A stretch of 64,000 bases of DNA from Syntrophales bacterium (lineage in GTDB: Bacteria > Desulfobacterota > Syntrophia > Syntrophales > PHBD01), in the NCBI GenBank assembly GCA_963668175.1, contig OY764159.1, forward strand, positions 1,920,001 to 1,984,000, given 5' to 3'. Below the pieces are notes generated by a model that was not told where the DNA came from, did no database searches, and saw only the letters and a list, made by a program, of their open reading frames with translations. Shown piece by piece: positions 34,034 through 42,442 of the stretch. The stretch's first letter is position 1. Each line of letters begins with the position of its first letter. Made by a program: the position numbers and the translations under genes.

Positions 34034-35857
34034 CTAAAAATCGTCGTCCAGCGGCAATTCGGGTTGGCGTGGCCGGACGGATTTTTCTTTTCCCCGCGCC
34101 GGCGGCGCTGCATCGAGGACCGCATCCCGGGTGACGACCGCACCGGTATTGCCGCCCAGGACCAGGGACGACATATCCAGCACCATACCCTTCATCGTCG
34201 CGGCCTGGGAGGACAGCTCCTCGGCCGCCGCCGCCGATTCCTCGGCGCTGGCCGCCGTGTCCTGGACGACCTTGTCCATGGCGGATACGGCCTTGTTGAT
34301 CTGGTCGATCCCCTGGGATTGTTCCTGGGAAGCCGTCGCGATCTCGTCGACGAGGCTGCCGACCTTGCCGGCGATCTCCACGTTCTCCTTGAATATCTCC
34401 TGCGTCTGCGTGGTCAGCTCGTTGCTCTTGCGCACAACCTTGATCGTGTTCTCGATCAGCACGGTCGTGTTCTTGGCGGCATCCGCCGCGCGCATGGCGA
34501 GGTTCCTCACTTCCTCGGCGACCACGGCGAAACCCGCCCCGGCTTCCCCCGCCCGGGCCGCTTCCACGGCGGCGTTCAGGGCGAGGAGATTCGTCTGGAA
34601 GGCGATCTCGTCGATCGTCCTGACGATCTTCGACGTCTCTTCGCTGGTCTTGGTCACTTCCTGGATGGCCGATGCCATATCGGTCATACGGTCGTTGACT
34701 TTGGAGACGATGGCCCTTGTTTCCGCCATCAGCGATTTGGCGGCTACGGCGTTCTCGGCGTTGCGCTTCGTCATGGAGGACATCTCTTCCAGCGACGACG
34801 AGGTCTCCTCGATGGCGGAGGCCTGCTGCGCGGCGCCGTCGGCCAGGGACTGGCTCGTCATGGCGACCTCGGAAGAAGCGGAGGCCACCTGATCGGCGCC
34901 CGCGTCGAGACCGCCGGATATCCTTGTGATCGGCCCGACGACGGATCGGACGATGAGAATGAGCAGGGCCATCAGAACGGCCACGCCGCCGACCAGGAGG
35001 ACCAGATTAACGACGGTCATCCGGTTCGCCGCGGCGAGCACTTCACTCGTGGGCGCCACCACCAGCACGGTCCATCCTACGTTCCGGCAGGGGTATAAAT
35101 AGGCCGTCCTCTTCGTATTCTGAAAGGTGTAGCTGATTTGTCCCTGCTTCTGCTTCATCATCTCCCGGCCGAACTCCTGATCCTTCAGGTTCAGTTTCAT
35201 GATCAGGCTCTTGTCCTTGTGGGCGAAGACAAGCCCGGTCTCTTCGTACAGGGCGACGTAGCCGGTGGTGAATACCTTCGCCCCCTCCACGAGACTCTCG
35301 CTGAACTTCACCAGATCCGGCACGCCGACCAGGACGCCGATCACCCGGTCGCCGTCCGTGATGGGCGAGGCGATGGCCAGGGACGCTTGACCGGTGGTGC
35401 GGGAGAGATAGACCTCGGAGACGTTGGTCTCGCCCTTCATGGCCTTCTGGAAGTAGGCCCGGTCCGGGACCTTGACCTTGCCGATGGCATCCGGCATCGA
35501 CGATGCGACGACATTGCCTTGCTGGTCGGCGATATTGAAGTAGGCGAACCCCGAGGTGGCCTTGACGATTTCAGCCATGGCGGCGTTCGCGATGCCCACC
35601 GACTTTTCGTCCCCCGATTTCAGGACGTTCCTGAAGACGTCCCGCGGGGCCTGCGTACGCACCGTGGACATGGCATTGGCCACCCACAGGTCGACCAGGT
35701 TGGCCCTCGCTTCGCCGATCGTCCGGAACATCTCGGTCGCATTGTCGCTGAGCGTCCGGGACGAGATCCAGTAAGTGACGCCCGTGGATACGCCCATGGC
35801 GAGAACGACCAGTAAAAACGTCGGTATCAAAACCCTCTTCTGCAGACTCCAGCGCAT
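34034..35857 (-). CDS. Methyl-accepting chemotaxis protein (dCache), copy 1
   Basis: TM-dCache-[26 protein letters not shown]-terminal LDDDF. Confidence 0.96.
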
Positions 35858-36596: not shown

Positions 36597-38420
36597 CTAA
36601 AATTCGTCCCCCCCCGGCAGTGCCTTTTGAGGCGACCGGACGGGTTTTTTCTTGTCCATCTTGGACGGGGCGGCGGGAACGGTCGCATCCCGTGTGACGA
36701 CCGCACCGGTATTGCCGCCCAGGACCAGGGACGACATATCCACCACCATGCCCTTCATCGTCGCGGCCTGGGAGGACAGCTCCTCGGCCGCCGCCGCCGA
36801 TTCCTCGGCGCTGGCCGCCGTGTCCTGGACGACCTTGTCCATGGCGGATACGGCCTTGTTGATCTGGTCGATCCCCTGGGACTGTTCCTGGGAGGCCGAC
36901 GCGATCTCGTCGACGAGGCCGCCGACCTTGCCCGCGATCTCCACGTTCTCCTTGAATATCTCCTGCGTCTGCGTGGTCAGCTCGTTGCTCTTCCGCACGA
37001 CCTTGATCGTGTTCTCGATCAGCACGGTCGTATTCCTGGCAGCGTCGGCCGCCCGCATGGCGAGGTTCCTCACTTCCTCGGCGACGACGGCGAAGCCCGC
37101 CCCGGCCTCCCCCGCCCGGGCCGCTTCCACGGCGGCGTTCAGGGCGAGGAGGTTTGTCTGGAAGGCGATCTCGTCGATCGTCTTGACGATCTTCGACGTC
37201 TCTTCGCTGGTCTTGGTCACCTCCTGGATAGCGGCGGCCATACCGGTCATATGGTCGTTGACTTTGGACACAATGGCCCTCGTCTCCGCCATCAGTTCCT
37301 TGGCGGCGCTGGCGTTCTCGGCGTTGCGCTTCGTCATGGAGGACATCTCCTCCAGCGACGACGAGGTCTCCTCGATGGCGGAGGCCTGCTGTGCGGCGCC
37401 GTCGGCCAGGGACTGGCTCGTCGTGGCGACCTCGGATGAGGCCGACGCCACCTGATCGGCGCCCGCGTCGAGACCGCCGGATATCCTCGTGATCGGACCG
37501 ACGACGGATCGGACGATGATAATGAGCAGGGCCATCAGGACGGCCACGCCGCCGACCAGGAGAACCAGGTTGACGACGGTCATCCGGTTCGCCGCGGCGA
37601 GCACTTCACTCGTGGGCGCCGCTGCCAGCACGGTCCATCCCACAATCCGGCAGGGGTATATATAGGCCGTCTGCTTCGCGCCCTGAAAGGTGTAGCTGAT
37701 CTGGCCCTGCTTCAGCTTCATCATCTCGCGGCCGAACTCCTGATCCTTCAGGTTCAGCTTCATGATCTGACTCTTGTCCTTGTGGGCGAAGACGAGGCCG
37801 GTCTCTTCGTACAGGGCGACGTAGCCCGTCGTGAAGACCTTGGCCTTGTCTACGAGACTCTCGCCGAATTTCGTCAGGTCCGGCACGCCGATCAGTACGC
37901 CGATCACCCTGTCGCCGTCCTTGATGGGAGAGGCGAGGGCCAGGGACGCCTGCCCGGTGGTGCGGGAAAGAAATACGCTGGAGACGTTGGTCTGCCCCTT
38001 CAAGGCCTTCTGGAAATACTCCCGGTCGGGAACCTTGATCTTGCCGACGGCATCCTTCACGCCCGAAGCGATGATGTCCCCCTTCGGATCGGCAACATGG
38101 AAATAGGCGAAGGCCGAGGATATCTTGGCAAGTTCGACCATGGCGGCATTCGCGGCGGCGACGTTGTGTTCGTCCCCGGATTTCAGGACGGTTTTAAAGA
38201 TATCCCGCGTCGATGCCGCAATCATCGTTTCCGTGGCATCGTTCACCCACAGGTCGACGAGATTGGCCCTGGCCTCGCCGATGGTCCTCAGTATCTCTGA
38301 CGCATTGTCGTTGAGCGCCCGGGACGACATCCAGTAAGTGACTCCCGTGGAAATGCCCATGGCGAGAACGACGAGTAAGAATGTTGGTATTAAAACCCTT
38401 TTTTGCAGACTCCAGCGCAT
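36597..38420 (-). CDS. Methyl-accepting chemotaxis protein (dCache), copy 2
   Basis: Tandem paralogue of identical length (607 aa). Confidence 0.96.
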
Positions 38421-39076: not shown

Positions 39077-40387
39077 TTAGGAGGCCCGCGTCGCCGTCCC
39101 GGCATTCGTCACATTCTCTGAGGGGTTCATGGCGGCGGCTGGCAGGTCCGGATGTTTGGCTTCCGGCGGCAGGCGGAGGCCGCGCGAGGGGATGACGCCG
39201 CCCTGCATCCGCCTTATCTGGCGGACGGCCTGGCGGATGCGTTCTTCGTTTTCCACCAGGGCGATGCGGAGCCAACCCTCGCCCTCCGGCCCGAAGCCGA
39301 TGCCCGGCGCGACGACGACGTTGGCCTCCTCGATGAGCCTGATGGAGTAATCCATGGAGCCCATGGCCCGGTAAGGCTCCGGGATCTCGGCCCAGACGAA
39401 CATGGAGGCCTTTGGCTTCTCCACGGTCCAGCCGATGGCGGCGAGTCCGTCGCAGAGGCAGTCGCGGCGGCTCTCGTAAATGGCCGCCTGCCCGCCGATG
39501 AAGTCGTCGCAGTCCCGGACGGCGATGATCGCCGCGATCTGGACGGCCTGGAAGAGGCCGTAGTCGTAATAGCCCTTGATCTTCCCCAGGGCCTCGACGA
39601 TCCGCGGGTGCCCGGCGCAGTAGCCTACGCGCCATCCCGCCATGTTGTAGCTCTTGGAGAGGGTGCCGAACTCGACGCCGACGTCCTTCGCGCCTTTCGC
39701 CTGGAGGAAGCTCGGGGCCTCGTAGCCGTCGAAGGTCACGCGGCCGTAGGCATGGTCGTGGACGACGATGAGCTTGCGGCGCTTCGCGATCCTCACCATC
39801 TCCTCGAAGAAGGCGAGATCGACGGTCTTCGTCGTCGGGTTGTGGGGATAGTTCAGCATGATCGCCTTCGGCGCCGGCGTGAGCGTGCGGCAGAGGTCGT
39901 CCACGCTCTGCAGGAAGGCTTCGTCTTCGACGATGGGGACGCGGACGATGGAGGCCCCGGCGATCGTGCACGAATAGATATGGATGGGGAAGGCGGGCAC
40001 GGGGACGAGGGCGGTGTCGCCCGGCCCGAGCAGGACGAGCGACAAATGGGAGACGCCCTCTTTGGAGCCGATGGTGCAGAGGATTTCGCCCGCGGGGTCC
40101 AGGGAGACGCCGTAATGCCTCTCGTAGTAGCGGCCGATCTCGCGCCTCAGGTTGTAGATCCCCGAGGCCACGGAGTACCGGTGGTTCCGCGGGTCGTTCA
40201 CGACCTCGCAGAGCTTGTCCACGACGGGCTGCGGCGTCGGGTCGCTGGGGTTGCCCATGGCGAAATCGATCATGTCGATCCCCGCCTTCCTCTTCTCCAG
40301 TTTGATCTTATTGAGCCGCCCGAAGAGATAGGGCGGCAGCATGTCCATGCGGTCTGAAAATGTTACGAAGTCTTCTGTATCGTTCAT
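39077..40387 (-). CDS. alaC: Alanine (glutamate-pyruvate) aminotransferase, class I PLP
   Basis: LPPYLF, MGNP, TIGSKEG, PIHIY, TLSKSYNMAGWR, DYG, PKASMFVWA, PGIGFG, ENEERIRQA all match AlaC/YfdZ as recalled; CAGGAG RBS. LL-DAP aminotransferase is the nearest alternative. Confidence 0.82.
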   Translation of the reverse strand: MNDTEDFVTFSDRMDMLPPYLFGRLNKIKLEKRKAGIDMIDFAMGNPSDPTPQPVVDKLCEVVNDPRNHRYSVASGIYNLRREIGRYYERHYGVSLDPAGEILCTIGSKEGVSHLSLVLLGPGDTALVPVPAFPIHIYSCTIAGASIVRVPIVEDEAFLQSVDDLCRTLTPAPKAIMLNYPHNPTTKTVDLAFFEEMVRIAKRRKLIVVHDHAYGRVTFDGYEAPSFLQAKGAKDVGVEFGTLSKSYNMAGWRVGYCAGHPRIVEALGKIKGYYDYGLFQAVQIAAIIAVRDCDDFIGGQAAIYESRRDCLCDGLAAIGWTVEKPKASMFVWAEIPEPYRAMGSMDYSIRLIEEANVVVAPGIGFGPEGEGWLRIALVENEERIRQAVRQIRRMQGGVIPSRGLRLPPEAKHPDLPAAAMNPSENVTNAGTATRAS

Positions 40388-40464
40388 GGCCGTTGTTCTC
40401 CTGAAAAATCGTCCCTCCGTTCGCCTGCCCTTTCGCCGCCGGAGGGGGGCGGGGAGAGGAAATG

Positions 40465-40495
40465 AAAAAAGCCCCGGACATATGCCGCCCGGGGC
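40465..40495 (-). terminator. Attenuator terminator in the alaC leader
   Basis: GCCCCGG-GCGGCATATGT-CCGGGGC-TTTTTT, about 78 nt before the alaC ATG. Confidence 0.88.
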
Positions 40496-40566
40496 CCTGA
40501 AAGCAGGAAGGCCATGGACGGCACGAATGCGACCGCCCATGGCCTTTGATGTCTTATGTGAAAAAG

Positions 40567-40653
40567 TTACAGGAAGGCATCACCAGCCATGGGCGGAAGA
40601 GCCCTGGCGGCCGCTGCTGCCGCTGCGAAATGGATCGTTCCCGTAACGTTCAT
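40567..40653 (-). CDS. Ala-rich leader peptide (28 aa; not in ORF track)
   Basis: MNVTGTIHFAAAAAAARALPPMAGDAFL*; Ala codons GCA GCG GCA GCA GCG GCC GCC; AAGAAAGG RBS. Confidence 0.85.
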   Translation of the reverse strand: MNVTGTIHFAAAAAAARALPPMAGDAFL

Positions 40654-40665
40654 CTCATGCCTTTC

Positions 40666-40844
40666 TTAGCAGGCTGTTGAAAAACGCCCATCTGTCGCGT
40701 TGCGCTGCAAGCCGCGTCAATCGACATACTTCTATGTATGCCTCATTCCTTGGCTTTTGCGCGCCTTACATCTGGACATTTTTGAACAGCCTGCGTGCCC
40801 CCTGCATAGGGGGTTCAAAAGCGAGTTTTTCCACAAGCTGTTAG
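40666..40844. mobile_element. MITE-like non-autonomous element
   Basis: TTAG at both ends; imperfect terminal IRs CAGGCTGTTGAAAAAC / GTTTTTCCACAAGCTG; internal IR copy TTTTTGAACAGCCTGC; CCCCCTGCATAGGGGG hairpin; two further partial copies in the window. Confidence 0.75.
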
Positions 40845-40857
40845 AGTAACTTACAAT

Positions 40858-40886
40858 ATTAAATATCAGAAACCGCCGGTTGTCAA
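40858..40886 (-). promoter_or_regulatory. Putative sigma-70 promoter of the leader-alaC transcript
   Basis: TTGACA-N17-TTTAAT. Confidence 0.55.
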
Positions 40887-41105
40887 TTTTTTTGTGACGG
40901 CGACAAGACGCGGCGGAATGGCACGTGCTGATGACCCGTGCCCAAGTCTTGCTTGCGTTGCCGTGTACACCTACAAGTCGATGACTTTGTAAATCTTTGA
41001 GAATAATGAACATCAGTAGAAATGTTAATCTAACGTCATCGATATTCTATTTTTGCAACGCATTCTTTTTTATATATATCTTCAGATCATGTTATTGGAT
41101 AGCTT

Positions 41106-42092
41106 TCATTTTACGGTAGATTGACAATTGGTTATGTTTTCAATTGCAGCCTTGATTTCATGCTCTGCCTCATTCCATTGATTATCCCAAGTTACCCTTG
41201 AATCCGCACTAAATGCCTCTGAAGCGAGCAGTTGAATCGATTTTAGTTGTTCTTTTAAAGCCGATATAATCTTTTCTCTGTTCGTCGCAGACATGAAACA
41301 AGGGGCAAACGAATCGCCTGTGTATCCATTGCCCAAAATGCTAACAACAGAACGTACTGTTTCAACTCTCTTTAATCCCTTGAATAGCTTGTCTAGATTA
41401 CGCTCTAAAGGTTTTATGTAGAGATCGCCCTCAGAATCATTAGATGTATAAAAGCTGCTAAGTGAATATCCAGCACTTGCTCTTACCTCTGAATTCGGAT
41501 CATTCGCTATTATATTGATTATCATGGGCACGAAGCGATTTGGCTTACCCCTTAGGAAAAATGCTGCCGTCTCCCTGACAGCGGGAGACTTATCTTTTAA
41601 CCCAAGCTCATTGTATTTATCCCTATCCTCACGCAACTGAAGATTGATTTTATGTAAGGCTTCTTGCCTAGCTTTTCCTGTTTTTCCATGAATGAACTTT
41701 ACAGTCTGGTCTTTAGCCGTAGATGGATCAACTTTTAGGTAGACGCAATAAACGCTGTAATTGTCTGACAAAGCTTTTTGTGCGTCGTCGTATAATTTTA
41801 CTCCGATACTTTCGTTAAACGTCTGACCACGTTCTATCCTGACAAATTTAAATTCGCATTTTGATGATGGTCTTCTAAGTTCAATAACTGAATATTCGCT
41901 TTCTGAACGGATTATTTTGTATGATGCCTTTTTGCATTCCTCTATACTTATTTTGTCTTTATCAAGAACAATGAATGATGACTGGCAGCCTCGTGAAAAG
42001 CCTTGATAGACGCCAAAGAAGGTATCCGTTGATCCTGCATAACAGGTAAGAGGCATGAAAACCAAACAACAAAAGATAATGTATTTTTTCAT
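41106..42092 (-). CDS. AT-rich exported protein with HEAT-like repeats
   Basis: Signal peptide MKKYIIFCCLVFMPLTCYA; LKDKSPAVRETAA and NDPNSEVRASAG repeats. Confidence 0.7.
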   Translation of the reverse strand: MKKYIIFCCLVFMPLTCYAGSTDTFFGVYQGFSRGCQSSFIVLDKDKISIEECKKASYKIIRSESEYSVIELRRPSSKCEFKFVRIERGQTFNESIGVKLYDDAQKALSDNYSVYCVYLKVDPSTAKDQTVKFIHGKTGKARQEALHKINLQLREDRDKYNELGLKDKSPAVRETAAFFLRGKPNRFVPMIINIIANDPNSEVRASAGYSLSSFYTSNDSEGDLYIKPLERNLDKLFKGLKRVETVRSVVSILGNGYTGDSFAPCFMSATNREKIISALKEQLKSIQLLASEAFSADSRVTWDNQWNEAEHEIKAAIENITNCQSTVK

Positions 42093-42442
42093 GGCAATAC
42101 TCTTATTAACGCTGATCGAAGATTTCCATAAACAGACTTGAAGCATTTCGTTGGTTGCAGATGAAATATCCTTTACTCATGAAAGACTGAAAATTCAATA
42201 GCAAAAAATATTAGCAAAAATATTAGAGTGCTGTTTCGGAATGGACTGAATTAGCAAGAGACTCAGTGCATGGCTATTTAAGAATACTATTTGAAAGGTT
42301 CTACGCCAGTTGTTAAACCATGTTTATTGAGTATAGGAAGAAAGTAATGAATGTGCCATCGCCGCCGCAATCGCTGTCAAGGTTATCCCGCTTAAAGAAA
42401 ACGCGGACGTTCCTTGCTCCGGCCTGCCGGCCCCGCTTCTCC

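Follow-up and report, generated by a model that had tools for sequence, protein, structure and literature searches.

The window analysed here is a stretch of 64,000 nucleotides from a Syntrophales bacterium (GenBank assembly GCA_963668175.1, contig OY764159.1, positions 1,920,001 to 1,984,000). On its minus strand it carries a gene for an AlaC-like, PLP-dependent aminotransferase of 436 amino acids (39077-40387; best NCBIfam model PRK08175), which is the putatively regulated gene of the leader described below. An earlier note, made from the sequence alone, had read the region before this gene as an alanine-sensing leader-peptide attenuator and had listed a 28-residue ORF with seven consecutive and ten total alanines, a ribosome-binding site and an intrinsic terminator. 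All three elements were found again. ORF analysis placed the leader ORF of 28 codons, which is conserved in relatives, at 40567-40653 (minus strand). Its run of seven consecutive Ala codons, the presumed sensor, occupies 40606-40626, the whole ORF contains ten Ala codons, and the ATG is preceded, at a distance of 6 nt, by a Shine-Dalgarno (SD)-like AGAAAGG (40660-40666). The terminator, set by the note at 40465-40495, corresponds to a terminator-like hairpin with a U-tract whose stem spans 40468-40498. This was the sole match of the terminator scanner in 40200-41300, and since shuffled sequences gave 1.6 matches on average, a single match is not significant by itself. The aminotransferase gene starts 78 nt beyond the hairpin and U-tract (40465-40498, minus strand). 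Two contigs (X1 and X3) from public sequencing runs of one sample, which may be that from which the assembly was made, showed zero differences from the leader, and a contig from another study (X5) matched 40303-40699 with zero differences. Downstream of the aminotransferase gene, two tandem, similar genes for methyl-accepting chemotaxis-like proteins of 607 amino acids were recognized by eye (34034-35857 and 36597-38420, minus strand).

A TTGACA motif at 40881-40886 (minus strand) is, judging from its position, the likely -35 box of the leader promoter; it was absent from the output of a promoter consensus scanner. This box is separated from the SD sequence by an insertion of 172 nt (40669-40840, no strand assigned), a palindromic, multicopy MITE/REP-like element with TAA on both flanks. 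It apparently consists of two nested units bordered by a 3-nt TAA duplication, and a blastn search of the genome gave 40 matches to it at E<1e-5, itself included. The insertion is absent from the closest relative (L086), in which the distance from TTGACA to the SD sequence is 46 nt as compared with 221 nt here, and the difference of 175 nt equals 172 + 3. Directly upstream of the promoter lies an AT-rich ORF of about 330 amino acids (41106-42146, minus strand) with no NCBIfam match.

The leader transcript can be divided into six segments, all on the minus strand. Segment A (40600-40626), which consists of the Ala codons and the bases that follow them, is predicted to pair with segment B (40576-40596) unless it is covered by a ribosome. 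B may instead pair with C (40533-40547), C with D (40508-40524), and D with E (40482-40498), the left arm of the terminator, which was delimited by the terminator scan and local helix energies. The right arm together with the U-tract forms segment F (40465-40479), supported by the energy of the E:F helix and by two-sided base changes in relatives. The local helix energies in the focal leader are -26.0 (A:B), -33.6 (B:C), -30.5 (C:D), -24.1 (D:E), and -21.7 kcal/mol (E:F). For the whole region the predicted folding energy is -105.3 kcal/mol (z = -6.49), a value that none of 200 shuffles reached, and the minimum fold of the region contains C:D and the terminator. Segments B, C, and D are segments 1, 2, and 3 of the earlier note, and its 1:2 and 2:3 helices were recovered as B:C and C:D at the same places. 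The main stem of its proposed antiterminator stood as well, but the inner part did not, as the register is slightly unlike the CCUG/CAGG pairing given there. Its three-segment switch with a terminator was thus right as far as it went; it missed the six-segment layout, including the A:B helix, in which the Ala codons pair with segment 1, and a U-tract following C:D in most relatives. The search of Rfam returned no family at the gathering score and ten weak matches with no leader family among them, so that the element, which would work like a his leader, is not a member of the Rfam His_leader family.

Scans of genomes and metagenomes, together with whole-genome searches, supplied the related loci, of which 11 duplicates were dropped. 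Sixty-nine leaders were aligned (A1; median pairwise identity 51%, with only two pairs above 95%), comprising 13 from Syntrophales, including the focal one (A2), and 56 others (A3). Since these leaders had been chosen for their Ala ORF, two further tests were added. A profile of the downstream RNA (segments C to F) matched 71 of the 110 orthologues in the focal aminotransferase clade that have at least 250 nt of upstream sequence, compared with 0 of 135 homologues outside the clade. The 71 matches are the 69 training leaders plus L227 (E 4e-13) and L236 (weak, E 0.07), which had been excluded from the alignments because the anchor pattern failed and which both carry Ala ORFs. A fixed rule, demanding a small ORF with at least four consecutive Ala codons, was satisfied at 59/110 clade loci vs 2/135 outside; it replaced a looser Ala rule (72/111 in the clade and 30/140 outside) that was too permissive. 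Four clade loci that scored for Ala (L253, L026, L061, and L015) were excluded because by eye they lacked the architecture, and the C-F profile found nothing there. Conservation of the upstream ORF and of helices in relatives, which the earlier note had suggested as a check, came out in favor of that note.

A covariance model built from the 56 non-Syntrophales leaders recovered the focal leader as the best match in its genome (E 3.5e-14). When applied to five further genomes, it gave one match each in four of them, always at the aminotransferase gene, and none in the fifth, whose orthologue is leaderless. A second poly-Ala ORF of the focal genome (C1:4192893) was discarded, as it runs antisense to a longer frame and lacks a terminator. 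Leaders are present in Syntrophales and at orthologues titled Syntrophobacteraceae, Desulforhabdus, Desulfococcus, Desulfatitalea, and Desulfosarcina, while 39 of the 110 clade members have none. In some of the leaderless members (L247, L253, L223, and L104) a TTGACA lies close before the gene, which suggests that the leader has been deleted or lost repeatedly in parts of the clade; L250 and the subtree L030-L107 are leaderless, too. A phylum-wide search with model R2 gave matches at E<=1e-5 in 5 of 151 genomes, namely the focal leader and four partial 3' matches in other genomes (L272-L275, E about 1e-6), which are possibly further attenuators built on the same scaffold.

The signals expected around a translated leader recur in the relatives. 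In 65/69 leaders a TTGAC[AT] box occurs at a distance of 30-160 nt upstream from the last Ala codon, as compared with 3/69 control windows inside coding sequences. An ATG is found within 25 codons in 63/69, and 49/69 have an SD-like word ahead of an in-frame start. A start within 25 codons is present in frame in 69/69 leaders, which is true by selection, and in 23/69 and 27/69 in the other two frames. In A3, four alignment columns encode Ala in 55, 55, 52, and 53 of the 56 leaders, with all four third bases in use. Parsimony assigned 6, 4, and 53 steps to the first, second, and third codon positions of these columns, a pattern from which the next three codons differ. Within a five-codon switch window, Ala accounts for 312 of 345 codons in the 69 leaders. 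The spacing between the last Ala codon and segment B is fixed, at 7 nt in the 56 leaders and 10-11 nt in the 13, whereas that between the stop codon and segment C ranges from 8 to 48 nt. This comparative evidence shows the Ala-codon run to be conserved and under coding selection. The rest of the leader peptide is not conserved, and the position of the stop codon varies from just ahead of B to as much as 35 nt into it or beyond, so the peptide product itself is unlikely to matter. Two other candidate signals, sensing of Arg through an AGG after the run and stalling at Pro-Pro, were rejected, as neither is conserved across the 56 non-Syntrophales leaders.

We also considered a general sensor of translation stress, in which any slowing within the switch window would lead to read-through and the Ala codons would serve mainly to build a GC-rich A:B helix. 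A precedent for broad sensing is the uORF attenuator of mycobacterial whiB7, which is tuned to Ala, has been tested experimentally, and responds to many kinds of starvation, according to the part of that report available to us (PMC10274678). It is also true that pairing with B is possible along the entire Ala run, that GCC and GCG make up 244 of 353 Ala codons, and that runs of GCN read as Ala on the antisense strand too, an ORF of this kind being present at 36/110 clade loci, so that codon periodicity alone leaves the strand unfixed. However, changes at third positions freely disrupt A:B pairing without altering the Ala identity of the codon (at column 32, 20 of 56 leaders are unpaired), no other amino acid exceeds 6 of the 345 window codons, and A:B has the weakest structural support of all helices. 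Moreover, the strand is settled by the starts, SD sequences, TTGAC[AT] boxes and terminator, all of which run along the strand of the gene. We therefore regard a stress sensor as quite improbable, and favor the reading in which the codon run monitors alanine.

RNAalifold, run on sub-regions, returned A:B, B:C, C:D, D:E, and E:F in both subfamilies. In A3, 87.7% of the on-state pairs were paired, with two-sided changes at 14 of 21 pairs, and the off-state pairs gave 87.5% and 18 of 31; in neither case did any of 500 shuffles reach as high, although such shuffle-based pairing counts ignore kinship. Taken singly, B:C was paired in 89% of cells and showed two-sided changes at 7/11 pairs, E:F showed them at 9/11 pairs, and D:E, which was 86-90% paired in both subfamilies, displayed a C-G/U-A exchange at three pairs (in 10, 8, and 12 sequences). 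Taking kinship into account with a protein-derived tree of the 56 leaders, we found pairing to be kept beyond expectation for B:C (z 5.0), C:D (4.4), D:E (5.9), and E:F (7.9). A:B was the weakest helix in this test (z 1.7 and 1.6) and in A3 lacked two-sided events on the tree. Under the tree-aware null no single base pair was significant; the best, D:E 136-166 (E 0.8, one event) and C:D 115-138 (E 4.1), nevertheless rank ahead of all other column pairs. Within the set of 13 from Syntrophales, the on-state helices are nearly invariant. They are 89.6% paired, their covariation does not exceed that of shuffles (1/26 pairs; 444/500 shuffles as high), and the tree-aware z of the helices is 1.6-3.0, with 1.8 and 2.2 for those of the on state. 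Part of the D:E signal could be secondary to selection on C:D and E:F, since C resembles E and B resembles D. Taken together, the alignments show five mutually exclusive predicted helices, of which A:B, C:D, and E:F make up the off state and B:C and D:E the on state.

The C:D hairpin, too, carries a U-tract in 50 of the 69 leaders, with at least six T within the 8 nt after D in 11/13 Syntrophales (range 6-8) and at least five in 39/56 others. Judging from this U-tract, C:D is probably a first terminator and E:F the second in most relatives. In the focal genome the first U-tract is degenerate, with four T in those 8 nt. This, together with the insertion between promoter and SD sequence that the closest relative lacks and the ability of B to pair also with E in some modelled states, would fit a family that is functional in general and a focal copy that has become impaired or rewired. 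On the other hand, this copy has kept the SD sequence, the start codon, the seven Ala codons and each of the five helices intact, and its modelled on window (see below) falls on the Ala run; impairment thus seems very improbable to us.

We consider it highly probable that the leader is a his-type, ribosome-mediated transcription attenuator that reads charged tRNA-Ala and controls a predicted alanine-forming aminotransferase. When Ala-tRNA is scarce, a ribosome would stall in the Ala run, cover segment A and leave B free. The B:C helix would then form, and D would be free to take E, which would block the E:F terminator and let RNA polymerase enter the gene, whose product would make alanine from pyruvate. 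With plentiful Ala-tRNA, the ribosome would run over B to the stop codon, C:D would form and E:F would terminate transcription. Without translation, A:B, C:D, and E:F would tend to form; by sequestering segment B, the Ala codons may thus keep the untranslated default mostly off. Translation, stalling, termination, the response to alanine and the enzyme activity are all steps that we infer. The hallmarks of a classical attenuator can nonetheless be recognized. There is a short ORF with initiation signals and a run of codons specifying one amino acid under coding selection. A predicted intrinsic terminator, supported by sequence and covariation, lies between leader and gene, and a conserved antiterminator, for which the signal is weak in the 13 Syntrophales, excludes it. 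Finally, the codons are placed such that a stall would give the antiterminator, as indicated by the fixed spacing and by modelling in which the hisL control partly failed.

In this modelling, the ribosome-covered part of the transcript was removed, the rest was folded up to E, and the probability of D:E was read at each position of the A site. With the A site on codons -3 to 0 of the run, P(D:E) exceeded 0.5 in 10, 13, 13, and 12 of the 13 Syntrophales leaders and in 42, 45, 43, and 27 of the 56 others, respectively. With a ribosome at the stop codon, this was the case in 1/13 and 5/56, and untranslated leaders were modelled as on in 3/13 and 19/56. The complete switch, above 0.5 on Ala and below 0.5 at the stop, was reproduced in 54/69 leaders, which agrees in direction with the logic of the earlier note that stalling on Ala gives read-through. 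In the focal leader the on window covers codons 12-17 if the ribosome footprint extends 9 nt past the A site, or 11-16 if it extends 12 nt; the Ala run comprises codons 10-16. The outcome is sensitive to the cut point, as a transcript cut three bases shorter left the focal leader off at all positions. For the leader of E. coli hisL, used as a control, the model gave the on state at the His codons and the off state in the absence of translation, yet the stop codon came out as on, too (0.99), and the power of the method to discriminate is thus not validated. The leuA leader was uninformative, since C:D was formed at all positions. The modelling is supportive, in that it agrees with attenuation, and falls short of proof. 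When the full transcript is folded, E:F usually prevails at equilibrium all the same (0.57-0.99 in the focal leader with a ribosome on Ala), and read-through would consequently need kinetic control. This dominance of the terminator state, and the single-pair covariation that is not significant, would also be expected of a constitutive terminator or a small RNA with an incidental ORF. Neither, however, would account for the coding signature, the fixed Ala-to-B spacing, the conserved alternative helices or the occurrence only before the aminotransferase gene (one match each in 4/5 genomes searched), and we give this explanation hardly any weight in comparison with attenuation.

What the enzyme does is indicated by family models, phylogeny and genome content. 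Its best NCBIfam model, PRK08175 (alanine transaminase), scores 512.5 bits, below the cut-off of 647, and none of the LL-DAP aminotransferase models reaches its own (score/cut-off: PRK09276, 446/507; TIGR03540, 436/593; PRK08636, 471/675; PRK09148, 467/648). The protein is identical to E. coli AlaC (b2379) at 204 of 412 residues (50%). In a tree of 251 distinct homologues, it falls into a clade of 111 (support 1.0/0.999) that is sister to the group with E. coli AlaC and not inside it, and another Desulfobacterota group is closer to the E. coli enzyme (median identity 58% outside the clade vs 49% within). The leader profile had no match among the loci of the group around E. coli AlaC, a set that did not contain the upstream region of E. 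coli itself. E. coli AlaA and AlaC are glutamate-pyruvate transaminases, as stated in the available text of PMC11286295 and in the RefSeq annotation. In the focal genome, an alanine dehydrogenase (TIGR00518) was not found, and in none of six further paralogues scanned was an AlaA-type model the best match. A separate DapL, scoring over its cut-off (PRK09276, 528 bits vs 507), is encoded directly after dapF, so lysine synthesis does not need the focal gene.

The attenuator could be real and alanine-sensing while the enzyme is mainly something other than an alanine synthase, e.g. an LL-DAP or other aminotransferase, or one using alanine only as a donor. In line with this, the protein lies below the AlaC cut-off and in a clade outside the E. 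coli AlaC group, the two LL-DAP-labelled models PRK08636 and PRK09148 score only 42-45 bits below PRK08175, and no pathway is suggested by the genes downstream, where 77 crude ORF calls revealed no conserved family. Yet E. coli AlaC itself matches the same DapL-labelled models in the same order, the true DapL adjoins dapF in this genome, and switching on upon a stall would suit an enzyme that makes the sensed amino acid rather than one that consumes it. We accordingly think a different main function improbable; alanine synthase is our best guess from the sequence, and alaC a likely name for the gene. The codon run would also be an independent piece of evidence on the substrate of a clade that databases cannot place between AlaC and DapL. 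The gene is patchy in its distribution, being present in 18/339 genomes of the order and 0/8 of the same family. A second AlaC-family group (L187-L207), 50-56% identical to the focal enzyme and devoid of the leader, is widespread in the phylum and occurs beside the focal clade in some genomes; both groups together have matches in 266/401 genomes of the phylum at E<=1e-125.

Among known systems, the his leader of Salmonella and E. coli (hisL) is the closest counterpart. As described in the consulted portion of PMC4046918, it has seven regulatory codons in a row and six segments pairing as A:B, C:D, and E:F vs B:C and D:E, with a stall leading to read-through and an untranslated default that is off. 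Unlike it, the focal leader reads Ala instead of His, precedes one aminotransferase gene and belongs to Desulfobacterota; furthermore, E. coli hisL has no U-tract between C:D and E:F, whereas the Ala leaders do in 50/69 cases. The earlier note knew of no characterized Ala-codon attenuator and held that this one may be undescribed, a statement that has to be narrowed, as leaders with Ala codons have precedents. The whiB7 system, in the sections of PMC10274678 that we could draw on, resembles the present one in its Ala-enriched uORF, its terminator/antiterminator switch and its feedback to an alanine aminotransferase, but its uORF is long and mixed, it responds to many amino acids and antibiotics, and it acts via a transcription factor on aspC; in the focal leader, by contrast, the Ala codons form a short uninterrupted run, and the enzyme gene follows directly. 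In Streptomyces lividans, an Ala-rich leader peptide, alaL (22 amino acids, 6 Ala), has been proposed before alaS, and its authors call such a leader not described before (PMC8079986). It differs from ours in preceding an alanyl-tRNA synthetase gene and in its scattered Ala codons, and the consulted text offers neither a structure nor conservation nor a functional test for it. The accessible parts of PMC13434334, PMC2965389, and PMC4833913 show no natural Ala attenuator. What held of the claim to novelty is that we found no his-type Ala leader before an aminotransferase gene, and none in Desulfobacterota, in the literature searched, which included few subscription journals, so that an earlier prediction is possible.

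If correct, our reading adds alanine synthesis to the pathways under classical leader-peptide attenuation, with a conserved his-like architecture and in a phylum without such leaders in the literature searched. Alanine is made from pyruvate in one step, and a dedicated starvation switch for such a product suggests that these anaerobes can run short of alanine. The tandem terminator, if real, would be a design variant open to testing, and the leader a ready-made alanine biosensor.

Two other leaders of the focal genome bear some likeness to this one. The first (G000:C1:3384871-3385059, minus strand; L264/L286) is a Phe-rich leader of 29 codons, seven of them Phe, with three hairpins of which C:D and E:F both carry U-tracts (z -7.27), and in the modelling its on window closes where the Phe run does. 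It precedes a gene for a periplasmic-binding-protein-like product, recognized by eye, with an acyl-CoA ligase-like gene further on, and is a candidate attenuator of a transport operon. The second (G000:C1:1715091-1715276, minus strand; L267/L285) is an Ile/Leu-rich leader of 42 codons before the 2-isopropylmalate synthase gene leuA, with a hairpin and U-tract closely resembling C:D. A broader proposal, which we hold to be about evenly balanced between right and wrong, is that Desulfobacterota reuse a single attenuator scaffold with two serial terminators (C:D and E:F, each with a U-tract) that is tuned by its codon run. It would read Ala before the aminotransferase gene and Phe before the transporter-like operon, with the C:D and U-tract part alone being used after the Leu/Ile-rich leader before leuA. 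In that case, the Ala version would control alanine synthesis directly, as a classical attenuator, and would imply an alanine-synthase function for the clade.
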